From: an uncultured Gemmatimonadaceae bacterium
Lineage (GTDB): Bacteria > Gemmatimonadota > Gemmatimonadetes > Gemmatimonadales > Gemmatimonadaceae
Direction: 5' to 3'
Length of the DNA: 64,000 nt
NCBI GenBank assembly: GCA_963829055.1
Contig: CAWHHI010000004.1
Span: forward strand, 96,001-160,000
The notes beneath the pieces were generated by a model that searched no databases, was not told where the DNA came from, and saw only the letters and a program-made list of their open reading frames with translations. Positions 1-6,700 of this stretch are shown one piece after another. Every line of letters begins with the position of its first letter. Position 1 is the first letter of the stretch. Position numbers and translations under genes: made by a program.

Positions 1-11
1 CAGCGATTGCG

Positions 12-305
12 GTGAGCAACTACCTCTTCCGTCTGTTCATTGCGGGTGATTCCCTACGATCGAGGCAGGCAGTCGCGAACCTTCGGCGCCTGGGCGAGGA
101 ACGACTGTCCGGCCGTTTTCAGCTCACGGTGATCGACGTCACCGCCGATCCCGCGAGCGCCGAGGCGGCCCGCGTGCTCACGACGCCCACGCTGCTCAAG
201 GAAGCCCCCGCACCCCCTCGTCGGGTGACGGGCGATCTGACGGACGCCGGGCAGGTGATCGTCGCGCTCGGGCTCGAAGGCGATCTCAACCTCGGAATCG
301 AATGA
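12..305 (+). CDS. kaiB: KaiB-family circadian clock protein
   Basis: 97 aa with LFIAGDSLRSRQAVANL, VIDV, VLTTPTLLK and PPRRVTGDL, the KaiB pattern; overlaps the kaiC start (ATGA). Confidence 0.9.
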   Translation: MSNYLFRLFIAGDSLRSRQAVANLRRLGEERLSGRFQLTVIDVTADPASAEAARVLTTPTLLKEAPAPPRRVTGDLTDAGQVIVALGLEGDLNLGIE

Positions 306-1897
306 CCGATACCTTCGACCGCGGCAGCGGCGCGGTGGACAAGATCGCGACCGGCATTCCTGGCTTCGACATCATTGCGGACGGCGGCCTGCCGCGCGGG
401 CGAGCGACGCTCGTCGCCGGAACGGCTGGCAGCGCGAAGACGATCTTCTCCGCGCACTTCCTCGCCGCCGGCATCACGATGTTCGATGAGGGCGGTGTCT
501 TCGTCACGTTCGAGGACACCCCCGAGGATATCCGCCTCAACGTGCGCGCGTTCGGCTGGGACATCGAAGCATGGGAGCAGGCCGGCAAGTGGGCGTTCGT
601 GGACGTGTCGCCCGAACCGGAAGGTCCGCCACCTGTCGTGGGCGGATTCGATCTCGGCGCCCTGCTCGCGCGCATCGAGCACGCCGCGAAGCGAGTGAAT
701 GCCCGCCGCATCGTGCTCGACTCCATGAGCGCGTTGTTCATGACGCTCGACGACCGCGCGTTGCTGCGCACCGAGCTCTATCGCATCTCGCTGGCGCTCA
801 AGCGTGAGGGAATGACCGTCGTGTTCACGAGCGAGCGCATCGCGGACTACGGCGACATCACGCGGTTCGGCATCGAGGAGTTCGTCGCCGACAACGTGCT
901 CCTGCTGCGCAACATCCTCGTGGATGAGAAGCGCCGGCGCACGATCGAGATCCTCAAGTTTCGCGGCGCGTCGCACCAGCGCGGTGAAGTTCCGTTCACG
1001 ATCACGGGCGAAGGGATCGTCGTCATCGCGCTCACGGCGCAGGAGCTGACGCAGGGATCGACGACCGTTCGTATCACGTCCGGCGTCGCCGAGCTCGATC
1101 GCATGTGCAACGGCGGATTCTTCCGCGACTCGATCGTGCTCGTGAGCGGCGCGACGGGAACGGGGAAGACGCTGCTCGTCACGCAATTCATTTCCGGCGG
1201 GTTCACGACGAACGAGCGGTGCCTGCTGTTCGCGTTCGAGGAGAGTCGCGACCAACTGATTCGCAACGCGCTCGCGTGGGGCATCGACTTCGCTCGCATG
1301 GAGCGCGAGGGCCTGCTCCGCATCGTGAATCAGTATCCGCACGCGATGCCCATGGAAGATCATCTCGTCCGCATGGGCGAGATCATCGAAGAATTTCAGC
1401 CGCAGCGCGTGGCGGTGGACAGTCTCTCCGCGCTCGAGCGCGTGTTCACGCTGCGCGCGTTCCGCGAATTCGTGATCAGCCTCACATCGACGCTGAAGCG
1501 CGGCGGCATCGCGGGTCTGTTCACGTCGACGACCGCCTCGCTGTTAGGCGGTGGGTCCATTACCGAAAAGCACATCTCGACGCTGACGGACTCGATCATC
1601 CTGCTGCGCTACGTCGAGATGTTCGGCGAGATGCTCAGAAGCATCACGGTGCTCAAGATGCGCGGCTCGCTTCACGACACGCGGTTGCGCGAGTTCACGA
1701 TCGATGGCGCCGGGATGCACATCGGCGAGCCATTCCGCCGAGTGAGCGGCATTCTTTCCGGCGTGCACACGTTCAGCGATGGTGATGCCCACGGCGATGC
1801 CGACGGCGCTGATGACGACGGCGACAACGGGAACCACGGGCACGAAGGGCACGAGTCCGCGTCGTCGCGTTCGGGGGAGGCACCGCGCGGTGTGTGA
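302..1897 (+). CDS. kaiC: KaiC double-domain RecA-like ATPase/kinase
   Basis: Two ATPase domains (GTAGSAKT, GATGTGKT), TFED/AFEES, KFRG/KMRG, and the phosphosite segment HISTLTDSIILLRYVE. Confidence 0.95.
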   Translation: MTDTFDRGSGAVDKIATGIPGFDIIADGGLPRGRATLVAGTAGSAKTIFSAHFLAAGITMFDEGGVFVTFEDTPEDIRLNVRAFGWDIEAWEQAGKWAFVDVSPEPEGPPPVVGGFDLGALLARIEHAAKRVNARRIVLDSMSALFMTLDDRALLRTELYRISLALKREGMTVVFTSERIADYGDITRFGIEEFVADNVLLLRNILVDEKRRRTIEILKFRGASHQRGEVPFTITGEGIVVIALTAQELTQGSTTVRITSGVAELDRMCNGGFFRDSIVLVSGATGTGKTLLVTQFISGGFTTNERCLLFAFEESRDQLIRNALAWGIDFARMEREGLLRIVNQYPHAMPMEDHLVRMGEIIEEFQPQRVAVDSLSALERVFTLRAFREFVISLTSTLKRGGIAGLFTSTTASLLGGGSITEKHISTLTDSIILLRYVEMFGEMLRSITVLKMRGSLHDTRLREFTIDGAGMHIGEPFRRVSGILSGVHTFSDGDAHGDADGADDDGDNGNHGHEGHESASSRSGEAPRGV

Positions 1898-3549
1898 ACA
1901 TGTCTGAACACAGCGCCAGCGAATCACCAGTGGAACGGGCGTCGGATCGAACCCGTTTGCGAGTGATCGTCGAACGGATGGCCGACGGCATCATCATCGC
2001 GGACCGCGAAGGTGTGATTCAGTTCGCCAATCCCGCCGCGGAGACGCTGTTCGGCCGACCCGCGGATGACCTCGTGGGCGAGCACTTCGGATTTCCGATT
2101 GTCCGCGAGGACACGAGCGCGATCGAGGTCGTGCGCCCCGGCGGTGAGGTGTTGCACGCGGAGCTTCGCGTGGCGGACATTGAGTGGGAGAGTGAGTCGT
2201 CGTTCCTCATCTCGCTGCGCGACGTCACCGATCGCAAACGCGCGGAGGAGCAGGCGCGTCAACTCCAGCAGGAGCAGGCGGCGCGCACGGAGGCCGAAGC
2301 GGCGAGCCAGGCGAAGTCGGAATTTCTCGCGGTCATGTCGCACGAGCTTCGCACGCCGCTCAACGCGGTCCTCGGCTACACGGACCTGTTGCAGCTTGGC
2401 ATCGCGGGCTCACTCAGCGACGAGCAGCGGCAGCAGTTGCGTCGCATCTCGGCGAGTGGGCGGCATCTGTTGTCGCTCGTGAACGAGGTGCTCGATCTCG
2501 CGCGCATTGAATCGGGGCGCCTCAATGTCGAGCGGCGTCCGATTCGTGCCGCAGACGCCGCCGATGCCGCGGTGGTGATGATTCAGCCACAAGCGGAAGC
2601 TCGCGGACTGACTATCGAGCGCGTCGACGGTGGGATGGAGCCGCTCTGTATCGGTGATCCGGATCGCGTGCGTCAGATTCTCGTGAACCTGCTCGGCAAC
2701 GCGGTGAAGTTCACGCCAGCCGCGGGAAGCGTCATCGTGGACATTGGCGTCGCGGACGCACCGGAGAGCGCCGCTCGTGTGCGTGGCGACGGATCGTGGG
2801 TGTACTTCCGCGTGACCGACACCGGTCCTGGCATTGCCGCCGATCAGCTCGAGTTGATCTTCGCGCCGTTCGTGCAGGCGCAGGGCGGGCGCACGCGCGG
2901 AAAGGACGGCACGGGCCTGGGTCTCACGATCAGTCGTCGTCTCGCGCGGCTGATGAATGGCGACGTCACCGTGCGCAGCAAGCTCGGAGATGGTGCGGTG
3001 TTCACGTTGTGGCTTCCCGAGGCGACCGATGGTGCGCCGCACGGGAGTGACGTCGAGTTGCCGCTGCGCGGACGAGAGCCCGCGGTGCAGGGGCTTGCCG
3101 ACATTGGCGAAGCGTTGATGCGCGATCTGGAGCCGGTGCTCGATGGCTTCGTCGCGCGACTGCGTGAAGCGCCGGGTGTGCCGGGCGCGGAATCGCTGCA
3201 TTTCTCCCAGCTCGCGGATCACGTCCCGAGTTTGATCGCCGACATGGCGGAGACACTCGTGATCATCGAGGAGTCGCGCGGGGAGCCGTCGTCGATCATT
3301 GCGGACGGCACGGCGATTCGTCGGATGATCTCCGACCGCCACGGTGTGCAGCGTGCGCGGCTCGGCTGGACGGTGGACGCGCTCCGTCGCGAGCACGCGC
3401 TGCTGCGCGCTGAAGTCGAGGGCGCGATTCAGCGCCGTTTTCTCGGTGAGCGCGAGGGTCGCATTGCGGAGGCGATTCGGGTGATCGATCAGTTGGTGAT
3501 GGATGCCGAAGCATGCGCCGTACGCGCGCTCGAACGAGAAAGCGGATAG
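1894..3549 (+). CDS. PAS sensor histidine kinase with C-terminal helical (RsbRD_N-like) domain
   Basis: N-terminal PAS, H-box MSHELRTPLN, N-box NLLGNAVKFT, DTGPGI and GTGLGL; overlaps the kaiC stop; alternative start ATG 1900. Confidence 0.9.
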   Translation: MNMSEHSASESPVERASDRTRLRVIVERMADGIIIADREGVIQFANPAAETLFGRPADDLVGEHFGFPIVREDTSAIEVVRPGGEVLHAELRVADIEWESESSFLISLRDVTDRKRAEEQARQLQQEQAARTEAEAASQAKSEFLAVMSHELRTPLNAVLGYTDLLQLGIAGSLSDEQRQQLRRISASGRHLLSLVNEVLDLARIESGRLNVERRPIRAADAADAAVVMIQPQAEARGLTIERVDGGMEPLCIGDPDRVRQILVNLLGNAVKFTPAAGSVIVDIGVADAPESAARVRGDGSWVYFRVTDTGPGIAADQLELIFAPFVQAQGGRTRGKDGTGLGLTISRRLARLMNGDVTVRSKLGDGAVFTLWLPEATDGAPHGSDVELPLRGREPAVQGLADIGEALMRDLEPVLDGFVARLREAPGVPGAESLHFSQLADHVPSLIADMAETLVIIEESRGEPSSIIADGTAIRRMISDRHGVQRARLGWTVDALRREHALLRAEVEGAIQRRFLGEREGRIAEAIRVIDQLVMDAEACAVRALERESG

Positions 3550-3558
3550 TCGAACGGT

Positions 3559-3676
3559 GTCATCCCGAGCGTCAGCGAGCGTCAGCGAGGGATCTCCTGT
3601 GATGTCATCGTGGCGGGTTAGCTACGATGACTTTCGAGAAGATCCCTCGCTGCCGCTCGCTGACGCTCGGGATGAC
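3559..3676. repeat. REP-like palindromic element (family A)
   Basis: GTCATCCCGAGCG...AGCGAGGGATCT pairs with AGATCCCTCGCT...CGCTCGGGATGAC; inner stem GTCATCGTGGC...GCTACGATGAC. Confidence 0.9.
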
Positions 3677-3932
3677 GAACGCTGATGGCTTTCGCTGTGA
3701 CTCGTTCGTGTTCTCGTGGGTCTAGCTGACGACGCGATGCTCGAACGCATTGTCGATCCGTCGCGGCGGAACGAATGGAACCAGGTCAGGCGAATCGCGG
3801 ACGGCGTTGCAGGACGCAACAGTAGTGTCGCTCTTCAGCAACGCTCACGACCGTTGTCCGCGTTAGGAGCAATGGTGCGTTTGAGAGGGAAGAGTCTGGG
3901 CCGCACCGATACTTCAGCATGTCGAACGCTTG

Positions 3933-3948
3933 CGGCACGGTTATCGCT
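3933..3948 (+). promoter_or_regulatory. Putative sigma54 (-24/-12) promoter
   Basis: CGGCACGGTTATCGCT: GG(3934-35)-N10-GC(3946-47), with GGCACG matching the consensus; upstream of the tRNA-like RNA and rtcB. Confidence 0.6.
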
Positions 3949-4046
3949 TTAATACGGAAGTGAGCTGGACGGTTGGGGTCGCGCGTGCCAGACGACGCGT
4001 GATGGGCGGGGATCCGACGCGTATGGGCTTTTGCCGCGTGTCGTCT

Positions 4047-4210
4047 GGGGACCGTAGTTCAACGAGAACGCGCCGACGCCGCAGGATTCCTTTGCCCGAC
4101 GAGGGCCGATGAACGCGGGGGGCCGGCGGCGAGATGCGGGTGACGTATATCGTGCCGACTGCATAGCGGTGAATGCGTGAGGCGCGGTGAGCGGAGTCCC
4201 GTCGGTCCTC
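4047..4210 (+). ncRNA. tRNA-like structured RNA with expanded anticodon and T loops
   Basis: Acceptor GGGACCG(4048-54)/CGGTCCT(4203-09), then TA, D arm GTTC-AACGA-GAAC, stem CGCCG/CGGCG, linker AGAT, T stem GCGGG(4136-40)/CCCGT(4198-4202) stacked on the acceptor. Confidence 0.7.
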
Positions 4211-4227
4211 GGTAGCCCTCCTGTTTC

Positions 4228-4389
4228 GGGAATCGGGAATAGGGAATCGGGAATGGTGAAAGACCTCGGGACGCTTCGTGCGTCTCGAGGTCTTTGCCAT
4301 CCCGTCCACGTGACGGATATGCGGCCGTTCGCGACACGCGGGTTCGCCGGTTGCCCGATTCCCGATTCCCGATTCCCCATTCCCCATTC
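4228..4389. repeat. Inverted heptamer arrays (GGGAATC)n ... (GATTCCC)n enclosing a hairpin
   Basis: gggaatcgggaatagggaatcgggaatgg versus cccgattcccgattcccgattccccattccccattc; inner AAAGACCTCGGGACGC-TTCGT-GCGTCTCGAGGTCTTT. Confidence 0.85.
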
Positions 4390-4392
4390 TCG

Positions 4393-5620
4393 ATGAAGAT
4401 CTTCGGCAATCACGATGCGGCGACCATCGCGCAGCTGGAGGATGTCGCCTCACGCGCCGCGGCCGCGGCGCTCATGGCGGACGGGCACGTCGGGTACATC
4501 ATGCCCATTGGCGGAGTGGCTGCGTACCACGAGCAGGTGTCCGTCGTCGGCGTCGGGTTCGACATCGCGTGCGGCAACGCGGCGATTCGCACCGACCTCA
4601 CGCTCTCGCAGCTCGGCGATACCCCCGACGAAGTTGGCCGCACGCTGAGCGGAATTGCCGACGACATTGCCGCCACGGTCAGTTTCGGCATCGGGCGGAA
4701 GAATCGCGCGGACGACGCGCCGGTGGATCATCCGCTGTTCACGGACGCCGCGTGGGACGCCGTGCCGCACAAGCATCGCGCTGCCTTACGCGACAAGGCC
4801 CGCGGCCAGTTGGGGACCGTCGGCAGCGGCAATCACTATGTCGATGTGTTCGCGGATGAGACCGGGACGATCTGGGTCGGCGTGCACTTCGGGAGTCGCG
4901 GCTTCGGCCACACGGTCGCGTCGAGCTTCATTGCTGTCAGCCAGGGCCAGGAGTGGGGAGCGCGTGCGCCCGAGCGCGAAGTGCTGCTCGACCTTCACGG
5001 CACCGATCGGTCACGACTACTGGCACCTCATGAACCTCGCCGGTCGTTATGCATACGCCGGCCGAGAGTGGGTCGCGCGGAAAGTGGTCGAGATCCTCGG
5101 CGCGAACGAGGTGGAGCTCGTCCACAACCATCACAACTTCGCGTGGCGCGAGTCGCACGGTGGGGACGACGTGATCGTCGTGCGGAAGGGGGCGACCCCC
5201 GCGTTCCCCGATCAGCGTGGCTTCATTGGCGGGTCGATGGGCGACGACGCGGTGATCGTCCGCGGCGTGTCGCCTAACGCCGTTTCACCCGATGTCGCGG
5301 AATCCCAGCGGGCCGCGCTGTACTCGACCGTGCACGGCGCCGGCCGCGTGATGTCGCGCACACAGGCTGCGGGGAAGCGGAATCGGAAGACGGGCGCGGT
5401 GATCAAGCCCGGTCAGGTGTCGCCCGAGATGATGCAGGAGTGGGTGCAGCGAAAGGGTGTGATCCTCCGCGGCGGCGGGCTCGACGAAAGTCCTCACGCG
5501 TATCGACGCCTCCCGGAGGTGCTGGCGGCGCAGGAGGGAACGGTCGAGGTCCTCCATACGCTGCGGCCGCTGATCGTCGTGATGGCGGGGGAGAATGAGT
5601 TTGATCCGTACAAAGACTGA
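4393..5620 (+). CDS. rtcB: RtcB family RNA ligase (one frameshift near 5000)
   Basis: DGHVGY, GFDIACG, LGTVGSGNHY and HFGSRG in one frame; HNHHNFA, RKGAT, GGSMG, STVHGAGR and DESPHAYR in the next. Confidence 0.93.
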
Positions 5621-5861
5621 CGGCCGGCGGCCGGCAGGCCGGAGGAAGGAGGCCTGAGGAAGGAGGCGAGGAAGGAGGAGGGCGGACGGCGGAGGGCGGA
5701 GAAAAGCCTGTCATCCCGAGGAGCGGCGGCGACGAGGGACCTTCTGTGATGTCATCGTGGCGAGGCCGGCTACGATGATATCACGCAAGGTCCCTCGCTG
5801 ACGCTCGGGATGACAACGCTTTTCCGCCCTCCGCCCTCCGCCGTCCGCCTTCCGCCTTCCG
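5621..5861. repeat. Family A REP-like element (5710-5814) flanked by inverted heptamer arrays
   Basis: GTCATCCCGAG...CTCGGGATGAC, with GAGGAAG/GGCGGAG units on the left and TCCGCCC/TCCGCCT units on the right. Confidence 0.85.
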
Positions 5862-5938: not shown

Positions 5939-6310
5939 ATGTCGCAAAGGACTGTTCTCGTCATGGCGAAAGACCGCTTCGTAGCGGTGCTGTTGGGTGG
6001 ACTCGTCGAGCTCTCGGGCCGGAGCGCCGCGTTCACGAAGGATGATGAACCCGCCGACTTGGCGGTTCTCCGAACGCGTCCCGATCTCGTGTTGTTCGAC
6101 TGCGCTCTGGGGATGTCGGCGTGCACGCGGATCGCCGCGGTCGCACGGCTGGAAGCTCTCCCGGTGCTCATGTTCTCTGCCGCGCACACGGATCGCGAGG
6201 CACACGATATCGCCGGGCTGTACGGCGCACCGGTGTTCGTCTTGCCGATCAAGCCACGAGAGTTCCTGGGTCTGATCGACAGGACGTTGGCGGTGACGAC
6301 GCCTAACTAG
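5939..6310 (+). CDS. Stand-alone atypical receiver-domain protein
   Basis: RTVLVM, RPDLVLFD and PVLMFSA fit the REC fold; the acidic pair and conserved Lys are degenerate. Confidence 0.7.
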   Translation: MSQRTVLVMAKDRFVAVLLGGLVELSGRSAAFTKDDEPADLAVLRTRPDLVLFDCALGMSACTRIAAVARLEALPVLMFSAAHTDREAHDIAGLYGAPVFVLPIKPREFLGLIDRTLAVTTPN

Positions 6311-6318
6311 GAGCCTCC

Positions 6319-6427
6319 GTCATCCCGAGGAGCGCAGCGACGAAGGGAGCGACCTTCTGTCATGTCATCGTAACCAGTGAGGCCACGATGACGTTCGAGA
6401 AGATCCCTCGCGGATGCTCGGGATGAC
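6319..6427. repeat. REP-like palindromic element (family A)
   Basis: GTCATCCCGAG...CTCGGGATGAC with inner GTCATCGT...ACGATGAC. Confidence 0.85.
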
Positions 6428-6700
6428 CGAGGCTTTCCGCGCGTTAGGGTTGAGCGTGCGCGCATACGCGGCCAGCGCCGTGCCGCGACTCCGCCGGCAT
6501 GGAGACGCGGACACCAGCGCGACAATCAGGAAGGGATGAACCGCTCGACGTCGGGACGAATCTCGGCTGATTCTGCAAGCGAGATCGGCGGGTCGCCTTC
6601 GGTCGCCGGACACAGACGTTCGGCCACGTCGCCGCACCGCGTTTGATTTTTCGGGCGCCGGGAGCCATAGCTTGGTGCGGAGACCCGAGACCATACCCCG

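Follow-up and report, generated by a model that had tools for sequence, protein, structure and literature searches.

Y RNAs of the YrlA type have been defined in bacteria by the motif GNCGAAN0-1G, which resembles the GGUCCGA sequence bound by Xenopus Ro60 (searchable text of Chen et al. 2014, PMC4201824), and the primary Ro60 site of animal Y RNAs is reported to be a bulged C (searchable text of PMC4030889). In Salmonella, the accessible part of PMC7790460 states that the operon rsr-yrlBA-rtcBA is driven by the sigma-54 activator RtcR. In the published view of the tRNA-like bacterial Y RNAs, given in the Discussion of Wang et al. (10.1101/312249), an effector reads their conserved elbow, which is proposed as the effector surface of YrlA.

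The RNA considered here lies in a 64,000-nucleotide stretch of DNA (G000:C4:96001-160000), which we refer to as the window, from an uncultured Gemmatimonadaceae genome (G000; 7.78 Mb, 86% complete). An earlier note on the window had described a tRNA-shaped RNA with two large loop insertions. We find that it is probably an undescribed Y RNA design rather than a tRNA with introns, and that the unit is larger than reported, since it includes a promoter-like site, an outer stem, a leader hairpin, and a 10-bp acceptor. The features of the locus are as follows:

3806..3820, no strand assigned: conserved palindrome, about 130 nt upstream of the promoter-like site, a candidate enhancer-binding-protein site
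3933..3948, + strand: predicted sigma-54-like promoter (GG at 3934-3935, GC at 3946-3947), with a predicted start near 3959
3978..4003, + strand: 5' hairpin, which folds and is visible and conserved in the alignment of the double-insert subtype
4001..4011, + strand: 5' strand of the outer stem, pairing with the 3' trailer at 4216-4225; alternative partner at 4082-4097 (5' strand of the module)
4015..4043, + strand: 29-nt leader hairpin with an AUG bulge, abutting the 5' side of the acceptor and resembling one form of the anticodon-arm module
4045..4212, + strand: tRNA-shaped body identified by covariation, with D arm 4057-4069, extended anticodon arm 4071-4131, and no CCA
4076..4126, + strand: anticodon-arm insert, assigned as a Y RNA module from lower-helix covariation and a match to the 5' and 3' ends of published YrlAs
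4141..4197, + strand: subtype-specific T-loop hairpin domain (stems 4150-4156/4181-4187 and 4161-4164/4173-4176), with a conserved loop
4228..4390, + strand: long inverted-repeat hairpin between the RNA and rtcB, identified by folding as a genome-wide repeat around an inner hairpin at about 4254-4302
4393..5620, + strand: rtcB RNA ligase gene, with Pfam RtcB matches on both halves and the frame shifted by an extra base at 4999
5939..6310, + strand: receiver-domain-like gene (weak NCBIfam response-regulator matches), which directly follows the RNA where rtcB is lost

The stems proposed earlier are all found where they had been placed, including the D stem (4057-4060/4066-4069) with its 5-nt, GG-less loop, and the lack of CCA. 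The acceptor core GGGACCG/CGGTCCT (4048-4054/4203-4209), followed by U-A at 4055-4056, had been correctly positioned but taken as too short: the full acceptor is of 10 bp (4045-4054/4203-4212), and its extra pairs covary among 19 double-insert sequences. The anticodon-arm stem (4071-4075/4127-4131) encloses 51 nt (4076-4126) and is joined by a linker (4132-4135) to a T stem (4136-4140/4198-4202) that encloses 57 nt (4141-4197). The rtcB gene does lie downstream, but not directly as had been stated, its start at 4393 being about 180 nt away, behind the repeat hairpin.

The cloverleaf at 4048-4209 is real and belongs to a conserved family; it is no one-off. Compensatory changes occur at 21 of 50 pairs in an alignment of 15 homologs, which are kin and not independent and whose structure was taken from one member, and at 12 of 58 pairs in the 19 double-insert sequences; they fall in the acceptor, D, anticodon, leader, and T-insert helices. 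Paired cells make up 92% of the 15-sequence alignment compared with 34-45% in slid controls, and the 19 double-insert orthologs show 97.9% pairing over the full structure at a mean column identity of 89%. Conserved stems with compensatory changes, the covariation that the earlier note had suggested looking for, are present in both sets. The folding energy does not rise above that of shuffled sequence (z of -0.93 for the element and -1.2 for 4015-4217), pair probabilities in the anticodon arm are 0.12-0.27, and with the 5' flank included the cloverleaf and an alternative fold are equally stable (-116.8 and -116.9 kcal/mol). ARAGORN calls no tRNA in the whole window, the element included, and Rfam gives no match to 4047-4210 even at E<=10. 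A strict cloverleaf scan of the 7.78-Mb genome with loops of up to 79 nt returns 29 matches, comprising 27 canonical tRNAs, the element, and 1 other.

Judged from its sequence, the anticodon insert of 51 nt contains the module by which YrlA-type Y RNAs bind Ro60, here in an unpermuted order with D before T. The insert had been rightly described as about 50 nt long with its own hairpin (4-bp, 4094-4106), but it is the defining module of the family rather than an insertion. In its fold, the single bulged C4107 stands opposite a 4-nt pyrimidine bulge (4090-4093), with lower pairs 4088-4089/4108-4109, and the motif GGGCCGAUG occupies 4103-4111. The broad Y RNA feature, a helix with a bulged C, is present: C4107 lies above a covarying middle pair that is standard in 68/68 sequences of the module class (47 U-A, 21 C-G), while the outer pair is standard in 51/68 and mismatched in the window copy. 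This bulged-C module is invariant across the double-insert subtype of the window. The strict motif GNCGAAN0-1G occurs in 48/119 family sequences and has one mismatch in the window (GCCGAUG at 4105-4111); the published YrlAs of Calothrix and M. smegmatis also deviate from it, and the 5' motif of Calothrix YrlA is found letter for letter in a paralog of the window RNA on contig C6. One module class (L106:1379-1867; L293, L299, L357, L128, L374) has lost the bulged C and has the strict motif. At these loci, which contain no Ro60 or RtcB, a short second EF-Ts-like gene (TIGR00116 above cut-off at L106) comes immediately downstream of the RNA; other members of the class lie upstream of a cytochrome c gene.

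The T-loop hairpin had been regarded as a second insertion; it reads instead as a subtype add-on that is not equivalent to the module, and it is absent or unrelated in most members. Its two stems are paired in 93% and 82% of cells, with 2 both-side changes each among 19 sequences, and one change in G031 suggests that its loop could possibly pair with 4077-4082. Other members have T loops of 5-11 nt or unrelated T-loop hairpins (G042, G090, G104, L313, L320). D loops range from 5 to 64 nt across the family, and only 2 of 120 parsed combine a short length with GG; at position 55, 37/50 seven-nt T loops have G or C, not U. Because the D and T loops vary and expand so freely, the tRNA elbow is not conserved in the family, and the window RNA itself lacks the elbow nucleotides of YrlA (D-loop GG, T-loop U55/C56).

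A covariance model was built from 15 sequences; because part of its seed came from loci next to rtcB, the RtcB link is inflated. Matches above 80 bits were taken as strong, and 20 such places were found in 17/151 genomes of the family sample. In a phylum sample of 151 genomes there was no strong match outside the family (best 42 bits, none above 43). The same genome has a second copy (C6:108774-108928), whose first 112 bases show 84% identity; it shares the anticodon-arm insert but has an ordinary 7-nt T loop. Around it is a cluster of tRNA and tRNA-like genes, and the only Ro60/TROVE gene of the genome follows about 1 kb downstream. The RNA is found in 7/7 genomes of the genus, and both paralogs in 6/7. 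Some members of the family occur within tRNA arrays, where as much as 1.8 kb can separate them from the next repair gene. Collecting rtcB loci from relatives, as had been suggested, recovered the element in 8/29 (1.5-kb flanks); the remaining loci, and most family rtcB genes, lack it. A pattern scan of metagenomes gave at least 120 loci, of which 103 are distinct among the matches listed and at least 2 are non-members, and two pattern scans of viral contigs found nothing. Over genome contigs, a 21-letter leader pattern proved too short (120 loci, 8 of them family members by eye). The titled homologous loci are from Gemmatimonadaceae. The unpublished genomes G013, G040, and G170 were counted only in tallies (the 29 rtcB loci, the RtcB census, and the type I model search described below).

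Related RNAs beside Ro60 genes, which we call type I to distinguish them from the window family (type II), were found as 14 sequences with intact D and T loops and a UUAU element. Their module interrupts the anticodon stem on its 5' side, and by eye a complete anticodon hairpin, with varying anticodons, is present in 7/14. Type I RNAs match published YrlAs crosswise, 3' half to YrlA 5' half and 5' half to YrlA 3' half; one has 16 consecutive letters in common with the D-arm region of Streptosporangium YrlA, the halves being in swapped order. On these sequence matches, type I appears to be YrlA in unpermuted order, the two being circular permutations of each other, and type II retains the module and the T and D stems and has lost the anticodon hairpin and the UUAU element. 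The Rfam YrlA consensus is colinear with the 3' half of a sister RNA at 15.4 bits (E 1.6), a match that is weak alone; in tandem type I copies, sub-threshold YrlA matches run across the junction, the best at 37.6 bits compared with the RF02553 gathering score of 69.

A type I model (R2) exceeds 95 bits at 13 places in 11/151 genomes, 10 of which have Ro60; 12 of the 13 places are training rows and only that in G144 is independent. Only matches above 95 bits were counted because ordinary tRNAs score up to 62 bits. Among the 11 Ro60 loci lacking a match to the first (type II) model, no type I RNA was found in 5. tRNA gene arrays flank Ro60 at L217:2480-4210 (G042), L212:2450-3490 (G126), and L235 (G038), and in G042 and G126 the last members of the array are a tandem pair of type I RNAs and a single type II RNA. 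In the window genome, C6:108393-108928 (L201:4394-4929) holds a tRNA-Arg(ACG)-like gene, a type I RNA with a residual anticodon hairpin (UCA), and the single-insert paralog.

At the 20 strong places, the RNA is followed by RtcB in 7 (one with Ro60 after it, one with Hen1 and Pnkp) and by Ro60 in 5; the contig ends in 3, and neither gene follows in 5. RtcB or Ro60 thus comes after 12 of the 17 strong matches that have downstream DNA. In the family sample Ro60 was found in 17/151 genomes and RtcB in 56/151. Compared with these 17/151, all 7 genomes of the genus (7/7) have Ro60, and all have at least one rtcB, at a window-type locus, beside Ro60, or both. Linkage to Ro60 (within 4 kb, same strand) holds for the C6 paralog and not for the window copy, the only Ro60 being on contig C6; this Ro60 keeps the residue aligned to H187, the Y RNA-contacting position. 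The earlier suggestion of a tRNA mimic with a place in RNA repair and a kinship to Y RNAs is supported by the YrlA homology, the paralog beside Ro60, and the RtcB and Ro60 neighbors. The extra base in the window rtcB is probably an assembly error: it appears as a single gap relative to G005, in DNA run X1 one base at 4994/4999 is missing from two contigs, congeners are without the extra base, and intact 408-aa RtcB orthologs are found in G001, G003, G004, and G005.

Several further observations concern these neighborhoods. In G043 (L206:2632-7871), the RNA heads an operon of a small protein, RtcB, Hen1, and Pnkp, in which two RNA repair systems are joined. A conserved protein of 103-107 aa (38-54% identity) recurs beside Ro60, RtcB, or the RNA (L201:8271-8579, L203:2194-2514, L206:2240-2554, L212:5959-6279, L220:6285-6605); it matched no Pfam or NCBIfam family, and a 105-aa query of the ESM Atlas returned only unnamed Gemmatimonadota clusters. 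In G000, G001, and G005 (L201:7690-8136, L202:3770-4288, L412), Ro60 is followed by a diverged partial copy of its own N-terminal region. Some RtcB genes have long in-frame insertions after about residue 60 (L241 in G037, L246 in G180, and G042:C247; frames of 844-1010 aa), which are probably inteins. The window at 1-3549 contains a KaiB-like ORF (by eye), a KaiC-domain gene, and a PAS histidine kinase, the kinase being syntenic in G003 and G004.

Upstream of the RNA, the site at 3933-3948 was recognized by what we take to be the sigma-54 consensus. Such a site occurs in 6/27 loci, all six of which bear the T-loop hairpin of this subtype, against a background of 0.029 per kb. Among the matches listed from metagenomes, it is present in 15 of the 16 double-insert sequences with upstream DNA and in 2 sequences that end at the T stem, and in 0/84 of the other rows. 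The palindrome lies 208-220 nt upstream of the leader in 5/5 double-insert loci of the genus that were tested, and also in G002. A consensus scan for sigma-70 promoters and intrinsic terminators called none. RtcR (PF06956) was not found in G000 (86% complete) or in 5/5 relatives (79-92% complete), and G000 encodes many other activators. As to the co-transcription with rtcB suggested earlier, it is plausible that the two share the promoter-like site, but contigs from RNA runs lie on the RNA and not on the rtcB of this strain, and the RNA is kept where rtcB has been deleted.

The leader hairpin is paired in 98-100% of cells, and of its 8 outer pairs 3 show both-side changes; because the search patterns included this hairpin, its presence in members found by pattern is by construction. 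The outer stem forms a duplex of -8 kcal/mol or lower in 24/25 double-insert sequences versus 8/77 other members, while the alternative pairing of the linker with the module beats all controls in 16/24 double-insert sequences versus 1/48 others. The outer stem thus has the more uniform support. The repeat word of the hairpin at 4228-4390 has 181 copies in the genome, and this hairpin is a possible barrier to read-through. Large REP-like palindromic intergenic repeats also lie at window positions 3560-3675, 5670-5860, and 6320-6430, and these repeats, including 4228-4390, give spurious Rfam miRNA matches.

Of 24 sequencing runs listed, 6 are RNA runs that hold a small share of 3900-5620, and three soil RNA runs (X15, X16, X17) were examined together with DNA run X1. 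Near-identical contigs lie on the RNA in 3/3 of these RNA runs. The X15 contig (4009-4258) and the X16 contig (4031-4202) show no differences and contain both inserts, and the X17 contig (3894-4148) has 5 differences and begins upstream of the predicted start, so that it may derive from DNA in the library. The contigs show neither strand nor ends. None is near-identical to the rtcB of this strain, a weak observation that does not gauge expression level.

We propose, with moderate confidence, that the RNA is a trans-acting, stress-induced partner of Ro60, in which the module binds Ro60, the tRNA body serves as a scaffold, and the T-loop hairpin is presented to a partner in RNA repair or decay. 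A sigma-54-type promoter would transcribe a non-coding RNA that accumulates with both inserts in place. Homology suggests that the bulged-C module in the anticodon arm would bind the Ro60 (Rsr) encoded on another contig. The tRNA-derived body would act as a stable scaffold without decoding or aminoacylation, and the T-loop hairpin would replace the elbow as the outward domain and may set the partner, with RtcB as the first candidate and PNPase as another. Action would be in trans, in the repair or decay of RNA under stress. A strict Ro60/RtcB reading is limited because the RNA persists without rtcB and in genomes where Ro60 was not found.

The latter genomes bear on the best-surviving alternative, which we nevertheless consider unlikely, namely a Y RNA descendant freed of Ro60 that serves as a tRNA-shaped decoy or scaffold for RtcB, an anticodon nuclease, or a translation factor. 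Of the 17 genomes with a strong match, 11 gave no Ro60, and in 5 of the 17, all 90-99% complete, neither Ro60 nor RtcB was found; G031, which holds the closest ortholog outside the genus, also gave no Ro60 (79% complete). The module class without the bulged C, upstream of EF-Ts-like or cytochrome c genes, fits such a release from Ro60, as does a leader hairpin that is better conserved than the module. However, in the window subtype the bulged-C module is invariant and Ro60 accompanies it in every genome of the genus. Moreover, a decoy for tRNA-reading proteins should retain the elbow or the anticodon loop, and both are lost.

Control in cis, by a leader or attenuator that senses RNA damage and governs read-through into rtcB, seems improbable to us. 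The position of the RNA between the promoter-like site and rtcB would suit it, as would the iso-energetic alternative fold, the hairpin barrier downstream, and RNA-run contigs that cover the RNA and not the rtcB of this strain. However, the RNA and its promoter-like site are kept in G002, where rtcB is deleted, and for the 17 double-insert metagenome sequences among the matches listed, rtcB follows in 7, is missing in 6, and is unjudgeable in 4. A trans-acting RNA is favored over an rtcB leader because of this persistence without rtcB (G002 and the 6 metagenome sequences among the matches listed). The members in tRNA arrays at a distance from repair genes, and the better support for the outer stem than for the alternative pairing, also argue against control in cis. 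At L294, a double-insert RNA is followed by an rtcB without its 5' part, an intermediate in gene loss.

One of the earlier suggestions amounts to a pre-tRNA whose two introns are cut out by a nuclease before RtcB joins the ends; this is very improbable and already largely refuted. It has in its favor the adjoining rtcB and the 7 type I sisters (of 14, by eye) in which removal of the insert would give a 7-nt anticodon loop. In the window RNA, no excision yields a 7-nt anticodon loop with U33, because there is no U on either side of the insert, at 4076-4086 or 4111-4131. The GG-less D loop, the 10-bp acceptor, the lack of CCA, T-loop inserts that vary or are absent elsewhere, and D loops of such varied length also argue against it. 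The X15 and X16 contigs run gapless across both inserts, and no joint that skips either insert was found in the contigs of the 3 RNA runs, which drop rare variants. Neither insert has an Rfam match to a self-cleaving ribozyme. A bulge-helix-bulge splice motif was considered by eye and rejected, since the bulge is on the wrong side of the 4-bp helix of the module relative to what we take to be the layout of that motif. Finally, a decayed, functionless tRNA gene with repeat insertions, to which a near-chance folding z-score and a genome rich in palindromic repeats might point, is hardly credible and is refuted by the covariation results, as well as by the column identity of the 19 orthologs and the presence of the RNA in 17/151 family genomes.

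The preferred reading, that of a trans-acting Ro60 partner, can be extended speculatively. It is conceivable, though doubtful, that the subtype is an adaptor joining Ro60 (through the anticodon module) to RtcB or damaged RNA (through the T-loop hairpin) under a sigma-54 activator other than RtcR, and that the family preserves the form ancestral to YrlA, in unpermuted order: a complete tRNA into whose anticodon stem the module was inserted, and whose tandem copies could have given rise to YrlA. In this family the Ro60 handle and the T and D stems are retained, yet the elbow loops are free to vary. One genome has a paralog beside Ro60 and another beside rtcB, their main difference being the T-loop hairpin, and this pair offers a ready test of a Y RNA link between Ro60 and RtcB. 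The unpermuted sisters, which in some cases are in tandem, also bear directly on the proposal that YrlA originated from dimeric tRNA transcripts. In annotation, such genes would be taken for intron-containing or pseudo tRNAs, or overlooked.

No description of an unpermuted YrlA or of this family was found in the searchable literature, which does not reach key reviews, and 'Gemmat' is absent from the five searchable supplements of Chen et al. 2014 (PMC4201824). The earlier remark that the double-insertion form was not recognized as a described family stands to this extent; its kind is recognizable as Y RNA-related. Deinococcus radiodurans Yrn1, as described in the searchable text of PMC4201824, is likewise Ro60-associated and tRNA-like, with a degenerate D arm and a non-YrlA arm order. 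However, the Ro60 stem of Yrn1 is formed by its 5' and 3' ends and a small anticodon-like arm is kept, whereas the window module lies in the anticodon arm. The b7a-tRNA (Burroughs and Aravind 2016, as cited in 10.1101/312249) is also a predicted tRNA-like RNA beside RtcB and sometimes Rsr. It is set apart by its description there as strongly authentic-tRNA-like and Band-7-linked; a Band-7 gene occurs in 1 of 20 loci here, 3.7 kb off and not adjacent. It is possible that b7a-tRNA overlaps the type I sisters.

The metazoan Y RNA stem, in the searchable text of PMC4030889 and PMC4201824, shares the single bulged C, and GGGCCGA of the window is one base apart from GGUCCGA. The window helix differs in being embedded in a tRNA-derived body. 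Its opposite-strand bulge is of 4 nt, which we take to be unlike the opposite bulge of metazoan Y RNAs.

The closest relative is YrlA (RF02553), with which the window RNA shares the sequence of both strands of the Ro60 module, the T- and D-stem sequences, the lack of an anticodon loop, a link to rsr/rtcB loci, and, as predicted here and described for Salmonella in the accessible part of PMC7790460, sigma-54-type control. The T stem GCGGG/CCCGY equals the Rfam consensus, and the D stem GUUC/GAAC is a compensated variant of GCUC/GAGC. In contrast to YrlA, in which T lies 5' of D and the acceptor is loop-closed, the window RNA has its D arm first, then the anticodon arm and the T arm, the acceptor being open-ended and a hairpin loop closing the module; it has an additional leader hairpin, outer stem, and T-loop hairpin, has lost the elbow, and no RtcR was found. 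The YUAY element and V stem-loop of YrlA are replaced by a 5-nt bulge (4119-4123), the element being present in type I sisters, and with no match at E<=10 the RNA does not reach the RF02553 gathering score of 69 bits. We infer that the window RNA is Y RNA-like and not a YrlA: its stems agree with YrlA, and its arm order, strict motif, elbow, V element, Ro60 linkage, and Rfam score do not. What appears to be new is the type II design, with its leader hairpin, long acceptor, and lost elbow, to which the window subtype adds a T-loop hairpin, an outer stem, and a putative promoter of its own.
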